From Candidatus Iainarchaeum sp. (lineage in GTDB: Archaea > Iainarchaeota > Iainarchaeia > Iainarchaeales > 0-14-0-20-34-12): 32,000 nt of DNA. The DNA is taken from assembly GCA_030649345.1 (NCBI GenBank), contig JAUSKK010000016.1:1-32000 (forward strand), in the 5' to 3' direction. The position numbers were made by a program, and so were the translations under genes. Shown here piece after piece: positions 22,803-25,783 of the stretch. Each line of letters begins with the position of its first letter. The first letter of the stretch is position 1. The notes under the pieces are model-generated. The model saw nothing but the letters and a program-made list of their open reading frames with translations, was not told where the DNA came from and did not search any database.

Positions 22803-23420
22803 TTAGATTTCAATAATCTTATCGCAGAATTCTGAAATGTATTCCGCCAAGCTTTTTTTGTGTTCTTTAGCCAGCAACACTATTGAATTGGCTTCATGAA
22901 TTCTGGATTTGGAAATCAGACTGTGCACAAATTTTTCGACAGTATCGTGCTGGTTGTATACCAATAAAGTACTGGCTGAATCCAATAACACAAACTTTTT
23001 GCCTTTTAATTCTTTTAAAATATTTTCTGTTAAAACACTAATTTCTGTCAATTCTTTTGGAGAGTCCACAAAATAAAAATTTTCTTTGCTGGATTTTTGT
23101 CCGCCGCTTTGCATGGTAATTCCATCCAAGAAAACAAGCTGGTTGGTGTCAATTCCTTGTGCTTTAATTTTTTCTTCCAATATTTGGGCTGGCATGTTAA
23201 CTGTAATATAAACACCCCAATATTTTTTTTGAATTAAATATTTGATAATTCCTGCAATCACTTGATTGTGGCTGGATAAGTTTTCAATAACCAAAACTTG
23301 AAAATCTGGATCCAATCCTTCCAGTTCGCGCTGAAAGATCAACGAAATTTTACGGCTTTCCAACAATAATTCTTCCAGTTCATTTTGAGGTAAAGTAGTT
23401 TCAGACATATGAGTGTTCAA
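22803..23420 (-). CDS. KaiC/RecA-fold-like protein lacking a Walker A motif (degenerate paralog)
   Basis: 205-aa ORF directly downstream of the KaiC-like ATPase. It has a similar alternation of beta and alpha segments ('VYITVN', 'FVLLDSASTLL', 'SIVLLAKE') but no GxxGxGK[ST]. The fold assignment is an inference. Confidence 0.5.
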   Translation of the reverse strand: MNTHMSETTLPQNELEELLLESRKISLIFQRELEGLDPDFQVLVIENLSSHNQVIAGIIKYLIQKKYWGVYITVNMPAQILEEKIKAQGIDTNQLVFLDGITMQSGGQKSSKENFYFVDSPKELTEISVLTENILKELKGKKFVLLDSASTLLVYNQHDTVEKFVHSLISKSRIHEANSIVLLAKEHKKSLAEYISEFCDKIIEI

Positions 23421-23513: not shown

Positions 23514-24248
23514 TCATTTCACGTCTTCAAATAATTGCTGCCCTGCTAAAATATGAACTCCTTCTCGGTCAATGCGTACTGGATGCAAATTTTCGCTGAT
23601 TTTGGTGTTTCTCATTTTAAGAATTCCTGTGCCGCGAATGAATTTTTCCTGGAGTTTAGTGTGGTACATTAAAATGACTCCATCCGCTACATATTCTTCC
23701 AATCCAAACAAAGAACTGGAATTATCTAAAGAAATTTCATTCGTAATAATACTGGTAACATTCAATCGTTTCAGCATTCTTCCCAAACTCAAAATTCGCT
23801 TTCTGGCATCCAGTTCTTTTTCAAAATACAATCGAAAAATTACGCCTGGATCAATAATGACTCGTTTGGCTCCTAATTTTTCAGTTAAAGTTTCAATCGT
23901 ATTCCTGAGTTTGTCAAAATCGTACAATTCAATGTTTTCAATTTCTAACATTCCCTTGTCCATTTGTTCTCTTAAATTCCATCCAAAATAGGAAGCCATA
24001 TTCACAAGTTCATCTACTTCTTCTTCTAAAGAAATATACACTCCTGGCTCATTATGGTATTTGGCTCCATAATACAAGTATTGCATGCATAGCACTGTTT
24101 TGCCTGAACCCGGATCTCCAGAGACAACTACTAAAGAACCTTTTGGAATTCCACCGTCCAATAATTCATCCAATCCAGGCACTCCGGATTTCACTCTTTC
24201 TGGAGTAGTTAAAACATTTTCCGTACTTGCGATTTTTTTTGCCGCCAT
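23514..24248 (-). CDS. Single-domain KaiC/RadA-like ATPase (COG0467-type)
   Basis: 244-aa ORF. 'GVPGLDELLDGGIPKGSLVVVSGDPGSGKT' contains Walker A. The Walker B-like segment is 'KRVIIDPG'. Size and layout match the single-domain archaeal KaiC-like/ArlH-like family. Confidence 0.85.
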   Translation of the reverse strand: MAAKKIASTENVLTTPERVKSGVPGLDELLDGGIPKGSLVVVSGDPGSGKTVLCMQYLYYGAKYHNEPGVYISLEEEVDELVNMASYFGWNLREQMDKGMLEIENIELYDFDKLRNTIETLTEKLGAKRVIIDPGVIFRLYFEKELDARKRILSLGRMLKRLNVTSIITNEISLDNSSSLFGLEEYVADGVILMYHTKLQEKFIRGTGILKMRNTKISENLHPVRIDREGVHILAGQQLFEDVK

Positions 24249-24384
24249 TAAAATCTCCTGGATTTTAAAGTTTTTGAACTTGAAAATTTTGAAGTCATTA
24301 GGATATTAATTGGTTTATTCTATTAAAAGCTTTCTTTAGAAGAATAGAAAAAAATCAGATACTGAAAATAAAAAAAGTATAAAA

Positions 24385-24677
24385 GGCGTGGTTTTAACTT
24401 AAGCAGAATTCCGAAGAAATCTCTCGGCTAATTCTTGAACAAGTCAAAAACTAACGCTTAAGTCCCCAACCACACCGAATACTTAGTGATCCAGTCAATT
24501 ATTAACCGCTGTTCGTTCTAAATCCAAACAAGCTTAACTGGGTTAATTCGGAATCTGTACCTCAACCGCGGTGGCGCAACTTAAACCCAAGGTTTAAGTG
24601 CGCATTAAACCCTGTTGGTTTTAATTGCGGTTGGTGGCACGCAGTGCTTCCGCATTGCTCCAGCACTGCTGATTAAG
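24385..24677 (-). ncRNA. Unclassified ~290-nt highly structured RNA (RNase P RNA or SRP RNA considered, neither confirmed)
   Basis: A GC-enriched island with no credible ORF sits in a 472-nt AT-rich intergenic region. At least 8 helices can be drawn, for example 24662-24669/24641-24648, 24627-24633/24563-24569 (enclosing two hairpins), 24534-24541/24491-24498, 24468-24476/24385-24393 and 24456-24462/24398-24404. Three positions are G-U pairs on the minus strand but A-C mismatches on the plus strand. In minus sense, an A/T-rich TATA-like stretch lies upstream and an oligo-U tract follows directly. Confidence 0.6.
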
Positions 24678-24720
24678 TTTTATTCATTTTTTATTCTTTT
24701 TCAATCTAAAACTCTGTTAT

Positions 24721-25299
24721 ATGTGGATTTTGGGTTTAACTGGAAATATTGCTTCCGGCAAATCAACTGTTTTGCGTTTGTTTTCCAAATATTTTTCCGT
24801 CATTGATTCCGATCAAATTGTGAAAAAATTGTACGAAAATTCGAAAATTCAAAAACAAATACTCCAAAAATTTGGTTTTACCTCAAAACCTAAATTAGCT
24901 GACTTAATTTTTTCAAATAAAACTGCGCGCAAACAATTGGAACAAATTGTACATCCCTTGGTTTTTAAAGAAATTCAAAAACAATTGCAAACTTTTCGAA
25001 AACAAAAAAAAGTATTCTTGGTTGTAGTAGATGTTCCTTTGTTGTTTGAAACAAAGTTTGAAAAAAAATGCACTTGGACTTTAGTGGTGGCTTCAACACG
25101 TAAACTTCAAATTCAGCGTTTGCAAAAACAAGGTTATTCCAAACAAGAAGCTTTGCAGAGAATGCAAGCTCAAAAAAAGCAAGAATGGAAACTCAATCAA
25201 ACTGACTTTGTGGTGTGGAATACGAAATCCAAGAAAGTTTTGGCAACCGAAGTAAATAAATGGATTTCATTCTTTATAGGTTTATATTATGTCTGTTAA
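24721..25299 (+). CDS. coaE: Dephospho-CoA kinase, bacterial CoaE type
   Basis: 192-aa ORF with the N-terminal P-loop 'ILGLTGNIASGKST' and a 'DVPLLFE' motif. It is collinear with bacterial CoaE and overlaps coaD by 11 nt. Confidence 0.85.
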   Translation: MWILGLTGNIASGKSTVLRLFSKYFSVIDSDQIVKKLYENSKIQKQILQKFGFTSKPKLADLIFSNKTARKQLEQIVHPLVFKEIQKQLQTFRKQKKVFLVVVDVPLLFETKFEKKCTWTLVVASTRKLQIQRLQKQGYSKQEALQRMQAQKKQEWKLNQTDFVVWNTKSKKVLATEVNKWISFFIGLYYVC

Positions 25300-25783
25300 A
25301 CGAATTGCAGTTTACCCAGGAACTTTTGATCCCATTACTTTAGGGCACTTGGATGTCATTGACCGGGCTTTAAAAATGTTTGACCTTGTCATTGTTGCAG
25401 TCACAGACAATTCTGAAAAAAAATCCTTTTTTTCTATTCAAGAACGTTTGCAGTTGGTTTCCAAAGTTTGCAAAAATAGACCGCGAATTAAAGTCGAATT
25501 TTTTTCCGGATTATTGGTAGATTTTATGAAACAAAAACAAGCCCAAATTATTGTTCGCGGTTTGCGTGAATTGTCTGATTTTGAATTTGAATTCCAGCAA
25601 GCTGTCATGAACCGGAAAATGAATCCTGTTTTAGACACTGTTTTTGTAATGACGGATCCTAAATATTTTTATGTAAGTTCAAGTATGGTTCGGCAAATTG
25701 CATTTTTGCACGGCAATATCAATATGTTTGTGCCTAAACTTGTAAATTTAGCCATTCAAAGAAAGCTTAAAGCCAAAATTTAG
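25289..25783 (+). CDS. coaD: Phosphopantetheine adenylyltransferase, bacterial CoaD type
   Basis: 164-aa ORF. 'AVYPGTFDPITLGHLDVIDRA', 'VRGLRELSDFEFE' and 'VSSSMVRQIA' are collinear with E. coli CoaD. Confidence 0.92.
   Translation: MSVKRIAVYPGTFDPITLGHLDVIDRALKMFDLVIVAVTDNSEKKSFFSIQERLQLVSKVCKNRPRIKVEFFSGLLVDFMKQKQAQIIVRGLRELSDFEFEFQQAVMNRKMNPVLDTVFVMTDPKYFYVSSSMVRQIAFLHGNINMFVPKLVNLAIQRKLKAKI

Follow-up and report, generated by a model that had tools for sequence, protein, structure and literature searches.

What lies between the coaE gene and the KaiC-like gene of this Candidatus Iainarchaeum genome? The window analysed here is the whole 32,000-nt stretch at the start of contig JAUSKK010000016.1. 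A first-pass annotation of its sequence flagged positions 24385-24677 as a single structured RNA of ~290 nt, read on the minus strand and folded into four consecutive domains (i to iv). The RNA was taken to be either a very divergent, possibly rearranged, housekeeping RNA or a novel RNA family. It is likely that the spacer is instead a composite of three units: a copy of a hairpin repeat with the structure H1-T-H2, a promoter, and a stand-alone small RNA gene. This reading is based on observed properties, namely the fold, its conservation, the single-copy status, the synteny and the finding that the 5' part is a repeat. Signals in the sequence additionally suggest where the small RNA would start and end, and that it would be independent of kaiC and of the upstream repeat. 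The features of the locus are as follows.

23514-24248, minus strand: gene for a KaiC-like single-domain ATPase (Pfam PF06745, E=1e-55), downstream of the small RNA and co-oriented with it.
24365-24384, minus strand: oligo-U tract (UUUUAUACUUUUUUUAUUUU), read from the sequence as a likely archaeal terminator.
24385-24476, minus strand: core of the ~95-nt small RNA, a three-way junction identified by covariation, fold and covariance model matches.
24468-24476 with 24385-24393, minus strand: closing stem of domain iv (GGUGUGGUU/AACCACGCC), enclosing CUUAAGC/GCUUAAG.
24485-24562, minus strand: putative promoter of the small RNA, comprising domain iii and a linker, with its role proposed from the sequence.
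24498-24505, minus strand: TATA-like box (TTAATAAT).
24524-24529, minus strand: GTTTGG block.
24534-24541 with 24491-24498, minus strand: outer stem of domain iii (CCAGUUAA/UUGACUGG).
24563-24671, minus strand: copy of the H1-T-H2 repeat, comprising domains i and ii.
24575-24629, minus strand: twin-hairpin module T, within the H2 loop of the window copy.
24627-24633 with 24563-24569, minus strand: closing stem of domain ii (CAACCGC/GCGGUUG), which encloses two hairpins and is the stem of the H2 hairpin (CAACCGC-loop-GCGGUUG).
24641-24669, minus strand: helix of domain i (GCAGUGCU/AGCACUGC), the H1 hairpin (aGUGCUG-loop-AGCACu), joined to H2 by a short, unpaired linker.
24721-25299, plus strand: coaE, encoding dephospho-CoA kinase (Pfam PF01121, E=1e-38), divergent from the small RNA.

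The structural observations behind the original claim are largely sound. Each of the named helices was located on the minus strand, and the oligo-U run that was said to follow the last helix is present. A 316-nt stretch of the minus strand folds at -111.8 kcal/mol (z=-7.4 relative to shuffles), and the plus strand of the flagged stretch folds less strongly (z=-4.9). The GC content of 24385-24677 is 44.4% compared to 34.5% for the window, ranking it among the top 0.4% of windows of 293 nt; the absolute GC maximum of the window is in coding DNA at ~26021. What does not survive is the unity of the stretch. The four domains differ in their evolutionary history: domains i and ii belong to a repeat with many copies, domain iii lies in a probable promoter, and domain iv is a conserved RNA present in a single copy.

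The housekeeping interpretation is refuted because the genome, an archaeal assembly of 1.32 Mb that is 94.6% complete, already contains RNase P, SRP and 5S RNA genes elsewhere. RNase P RNA (RF00373) is located at C46:7858-8280 and is full length (93 bits), SRP RNA (RF01857) is a full-length match at C48:8247-8521 (107 bits), both above threshold, and 5S rRNA (RF00001) is found at C27:41899-42014 (70.5 bits). None of these three models matches the window at its gathering score or the local region 24250-24800 at E<=10, and all three identities were rejected. The flagged stretch resembles archaeal RNase P RNA and SRP RNA in its ~290-nt size, and one 15-nt string resembles RNase P CR-V, but the region scores nothing against either model at E<=10. 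The features expected of a match are, for RNase P RNA, the P4 helix that CR-I and CR-V build together and, for SRP RNA, the Alu domain with helices 5, 6 and 8. In 5S rRNA the three-way junction opens straight from helix I, whereas in the present fold the junction is reached only after an internal loop and a further stem. The complete set of 4227 Rfam 15 models, which includes riboswitches, self-cleaving ribozymes and archaeal sRNAs, gave no match in the window at gathering scores. Locally, at E<=10, a chance match (C0465, E=3.2) was the sole result. The check by covariance models that the first-pass annotation had called for was also applied to 19 homologous loci, and at E<=1 these returned only chance matches, including RAGATH-32 in one of the 19 (E=0.98). 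ARAGORN detected no tRNA or tmRNA in the window. Readings as a K-turn, a hammerhead, an H/ACA or a C/D motif were dropped by eye, because core residues that should be invariant vary or are missing. Full-text literature searches found a description of neither the small RNA nor the repeat.

Domains i and ii belong to a dispersed repeat. The 5' 110 nt of the flagged stretch match many sites across the genome and the 3' 186 nt match none, and a BLAST search of the whole 321 nt against 60 relatives recovered repeat-module fragments only. A census of the window's genome (G000) by blastn, nhmmer and a covariance model found ~20 T sites and ~29 H1-H2 sites. These are non-coding and span 50-180 nt each in a 1.3-Mb genome. 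The T module is optional and can be found in the H1 loop, in the H2 loop or alone. Compensatory changes keep the repeat stems paired: pairing holds in 95.7% of cells, and both sides have changed in 10 of the 17 pairs. The two same-family genomes, G001 and G002, contain no copies, and matches in other genomes are sporadic and weak.

Several copies carry what is an insertion footprint, judged from their flanks. Direct target repeats of variable length (15-40 nt) bracket 7 of 26 copies, not counting the window's own. They score 15-37, whereas 1000 random controls reach 12 at the 99th percentile and 15 at most. The right-hand direct repeat starts exactly at the 3' end of the element, and several of the direct repeats contain the last codons and the stop codon of a gene. 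As target duplications they are unusually long and variable. No flanking duplication was found at the window's own copy. A sister-strain comparison for an empty site yielded one contig encoding an identical KaiC protein, and this contig, from SRR13727527, is 100% identical to the window; no record of the CoaE protein was found. The window copy is mobile-looking and lineage-specific, and may have been inserted at this site. A Y1/HUH transposase (RAYT, PF01797) gave no match in the 94.6%-complete assembly, whose incompleteness leaves its absence unproven, and no reverse transcriptase is detectable in the genome.

Copies of the repeat also occur beside stable RNA genes. H1-H2 copies lie on either side of the SRP RNA gene (C48:8040-8219 and C48:8722-8774), the downstream one with T modules in H1 and H2 alike. 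Several more copies abut tRNA genes at C25:3990, C48:46786, C38:6060 and C20:25936. A T-module copy by a tRNA 3' end, within C25:3746-4146, has the longest bracketing duplication seen, ~65 nt, which includes the tRNA 3' end and the sequence downstream of it.

In its general form, the repeat resembles REP/BIME elements (REPINs), BOX-type repeats and MITEs, which are likewise short, non-coding, multi-copy and built from modular hairpins. The likeness to REP/BIME (REPIN) elements lies in palindromic extragenic hairpin units, here with T modules nested in the H1 or H2 loops. Copies lie in intergenic DNA and at gene ends, and their stems are maintained by compensatory change. The cognate RAYT (Y1 HUH) transposase of REPINs was not found here, and the host is a DPANN archaeon, whereas REP/BIME elements are bacterial. 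As with MITEs, the element is short, non-coding and present in many copies. Unlike MITEs, its ends are two different hairpins without terminal inverted repeats, and its duplications are 15-40 nt, variable and often inclusive of a gene's last codons. Typical MITE target duplications are 2-10 bp.

The middle of the stretch, 24485-24562, is probably promoter DNA and not an RNA domain. The helices attributed to domain iii exist, but as a structure they do not exceed chance: the segment folds at z=-1.26, and 21 of 200 shuffles are as good. The inner 6-bp stem coincides with the upstream promoter block, and the 3' arm of the outer stem abuts the TATA box. With the upstream regions of all members of the small RNA family aligned at the start of P1, the closing stem, a TATA-like TTTTATT box is shared at -32 to -25, together with GGTTTG at around -57. 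Often there is a further GGTTTGAAAA-like block near -88. In the window, the TATA-like box and the GTTTGG block have a spacing equal to that of the relatives. The TATA box also sits where it does upstream of the genes for RNase P RNA, 5S rRNA and SRP RNA in the same genome. GGTTTG was considered as a general promoter motif for stable RNAs and was rejected, being found upstream of only 2 of 20 tRNA genes.

The 3' third of the stretch, 24385-24476, contains the small RNA. From its 5' end, it is composed of the closing stem P1, a G-rich internal loop, a second stem (P2) and a three-way junction whose arms are a variable hairpin a and a conserved hairpin b (AGAUUUC-UUCG-GAAUUCU). Alone, this segment folds at z=-5.5. 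Across the relatives, its helices are kept through compensatory changes. In an alignment of 16 strong members from six families, which was fitted to the model and thus favours its structure, pairing holds in 94.4% of cells, and both sides are altered in 24 of the 31 pairs. The controls agree, as none of 500 shuffles equals the observed value and sliding the partners by 1-3 columns reduces pairing to 33-51%. An independent RNAalifold prediction arrives at this fold too, and 26 of its 33 pairs are compensatory. The orientation is fixed by the many G-U pairs on the minus strand, which are A-C on the opposite strand, and by the far lower score of the antisense strand (27.6 vs 84.7 bits), in line with the strand originally proposed. 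Examples are column pairs 22/107 and 72/92, at each of which 8 of the 16 members have G-U. Sequence is retained beyond the needs of pairing in P1 (GGUGUGG/CCACACC), in the G-rich internal loop and in the hairpin b stem. Variation is free in hairpin a and in the apical loops. By the generic criteria of homologues and compensatory changes, 24385-24476 is a predicted conserved structured RNA gene. The proposal of a novel RNA family is therefore retained for this third of the stretch and abandoned for the remainder: comparative analysis indicates that the ~95-nt small RNA is a well-supported, previously undescribed family without an Rfam match.

The family is restricted in its distribution. The named relatives of the locus are Candidatus Iainarchaeum and Diapherotrites MAGs. 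In G012, a genome of a different family, a homologue of domain iv is found at the syntenic site with compensatory changes in the inner stem, and the window and G012 sequences each fold alone into the same architecture. The seed model recovered single-copy homologues in five further genomes. The refined model, built on seven sequences, detects the small RNA in 16 of 151 sampled genomes, which belong to six families of one Iainarchaeota order. The window's genome has one copy, and G079 and G096 each have two, the second being a shorter paralogue that adjoins coaE. The possibility that the 3' part is another repeat was dismissed, as the genome contains no second copy. Searches with lax filters failed to recover the small RNA from G019, from either same-family genome or from two near-complete genomes. 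Its distribution is therefore patchy and its role accessory, not universal; genomes in which it was missed either do without it or have a copy that has diverged beyond detection. Scanning metagenome and viral contigs for signature patterns produced no new members, and no viral match passed the model.

Several related sequences were encountered during these searches. In G079 (contig C2, L068), a tandem second copy of the short coaE-adjacent paralogue (CUGGUGUGAUUGCGAC...CUCUUCGGAAUUUU...) lies ~60-150 nt downstream of the first. Contig JAFCBY010000004.1 (L069) is titled 'Candidatus Falkowbacteria bacterium' and is probably mis-binned or mislabelled; it carries an Iainarchaeum-type kaiC (66% identity) and an archaeal copy of the sRNA that scores 49.6 bits, equal to the G086 copy. 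Downstream of the sRNA in G012 (L048, 1597-1700) and in G029 (L056) there are runs of short hairpins with UCUUCGGA-type UUCG tetraloops, three of them in tandem in G012. These resemble hairpin b and may be a species-specific repeat. An unrelated inverted repeat of ~80-100 nt, GGTGTGGTTGGG...CCCAACCACACC, accounts for the matches of the signature-pattern scans (L091-L170, which include many Ga0123355 and Ga0123357 contigs). It is abundant in one metagenome sample group and scores <=29 bits with the sRNA model, with many matches on both strands.

The usual setting of the small RNA is between coaE and the gene for the KaiC-like ATPase. Two relatives keep the divergent coaE/kaiC arrangement. coaE, which anchors the synteny in several families, directly adjoins the small RNA, in divergent orientation, in G029, G045, G088, G096 and G079, and in G012 one small ORF separates the two. 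coaE itself forms a pair with coaD (24721-25783, plus strand) that is of bacterial type in an archaeal genome and is conserved across the order; the coaD assignment is based on a CTP_transf_like cytidylyltransferase domain, consistent with CoaD/PPAT. The region between the sRNA and kaiC contains a further conserved hairpin, element B, in L049 (oriented, ~345-410), L052 and L057. Element B has an outer stem around GGAGG..hairpin..GrACUUUGA and is not seen in the window. It stands alone upstream of kaiC in G019 (L023:2325-2385). In members with element B the U-run follows it, and the sRNA transcript may extend in the 3' direction to include it. In G021 (L051), an ORF at 1682-2134, directly downstream of the sRNA and in the usual place of kaiC, is similar to IS200/IS605-type Y1 transposases. 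It has an HYHFV...KYRKK motif, as read by eye, and may be an insertion.

This synteny raises the possibility that the ~95-nt RNA acts in cis as the leader of the KaiC-like ATPase operon. As a riboswitch, or as an attenuator that binds a protein, it would use its closing stem and the U-run to terminate transcription unless a signal permits read-through. A co-oriented KaiC-like gene does follow 80-275 nt downstream of the small RNA in nine genomes, P1 and the U-run look like a terminator, and the U-run just after P1 is weak in L060, L061 and L063. In those same three loci, however, a conserved TATA box and an SD belonging to kaiC itself lie between the RNA and the start codon, and most members have U-runs ~5-25 nt after P1. 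The f27 copies that adjoin coaE have no cis target for a leader because their downstream gene is convergent. Moreover, 9 of 10 fetched Iainarchaeum-type kaiC loci (56-66% identity) lack the RNA within 2.5 kb, and no known riboswitch model matches. A leader is accordingly an unlikely explanation. The small RNA is most likely an accessory, stand-alone RNA and not the leader of the next gene, as far as its flanking signals indicate.

The original proposal, that all of 24385-24677 is one multi-domain RNA of ~290 nt (a rearranged housekeeping RNA or a novel large one) with a pseudoknot, is favoured by the strong minus-strand fold of the whole stretch, an AT-rich TATA-like tract upstream of domain i and a 9-bp long-range complementarity (24547-24555 with 24407-24415). 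The complementarity is real and includes one G-U pair, but the pseudoknot is unsupported because one arm lies within the 3' strand of hairpin b, which is itself supported by covariation, and the other lies upstream of the predicted transcription start. A single RNA is likewise unsupported because the 5' 110 nt are a dispersed repeat and the middle part is promoter-like and not significantly structured. Neither the repeat, with its 29 copies in this genome, nor the middle part is kept upstream of the RNA in relatives, and the housekeeping RNAs are encoded elsewhere. The one-RNA model is thus largely refuted and very improbable. At the other extreme, domain iv might encode no functional RNA and be conserved as DNA, in the form of nested palindromic protein sites or a relic repeat. 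The genome is indeed rich in palindromic DNA repeats, and hairpin b contains GAATTC-type palindromes. The element is nevertheless syntenic and single-copy per genome, all of its helices change sequence yet keep pairing, its G-U pairs and the weak antisense score tie it to one strand, and promoter and terminator signals flank it. Conservation as DNA alone therefore has almost no probability.

Under the composite reading, the small RNA would be transcribed from its own TATA-type promoter, probably starting a few nucleotides upstream of the core (~24477-24484). Transcription would end in the oligo-U terminator, ahead of a separate kaiC promoter. The folded accessory RNA may then serve as a protein-binding scaffold, recognised through the closing stem (GGUGUGG/CCACACC), the G-rich internal loop and hairpin b. 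A protein-recognised scaffold is our most likely guess over an antisense regulator, because conservation beyond pairing is found in P1, the G-rich loop and hairpin b, and the apical loops and hairpin a are free to vary. A crude duplex test of whether the sRNA could pair in antisense with the start region of kaiC gave no signal (z of -1.2 to +1.6).

The closest comparison is with the orphan archaeal sRNAs. SscA and HgcC/E/F/G, from the work of Klein, Misulovin and Eddy in 2002, are reportedly GC-rich structured sRNAs of AT-rich archaeal genomes. The small RNA described here shares with them its small size, stable fold, own transcription (predicted here), position as a GC-rich island in an AT-rich genome, restriction to one lineage and lack of an assigned function. 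It differs in that none of the 4227 Rfam 15 families, which may not include all of the named RNAs, matches it. It also differs in its fold, with a closing stem, a G-rich internal loop and a three-way junction that carries a UUCG-type hairpin, and in its lineage, the Iainarchaeota within DPANN.

DPANN archaea have tiny genomes, and to our knowledge almost none of their non-coding RNAs have been studied experimentally. Much of the apparent RNA structure in this genome comes from a proliferating hairpin repeat, whose mechanism is of interest for its unusually long target duplications and for the fact that no recognisable transposase was found. An sRNA family supported by covariation, with promoter signals and absent from Rfam, is an addition to the DPANN RNA inventory. 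Its recurrent place before the gene for a KaiC-like ATPase provides a testable functional lead. That the RNA is an Iainarchaeota-specific class tied to the KaiC-like ATPase module, for example as an RNA partner or regulator of the ATPase pair (the window's KaiC-like ATPase has a DUF7090 partner at 22803-23420), is a tentative and rather doubtful proposal. If true, this link would be the first RNA connection to the poorly understood archaeal KaiC-like proteins.
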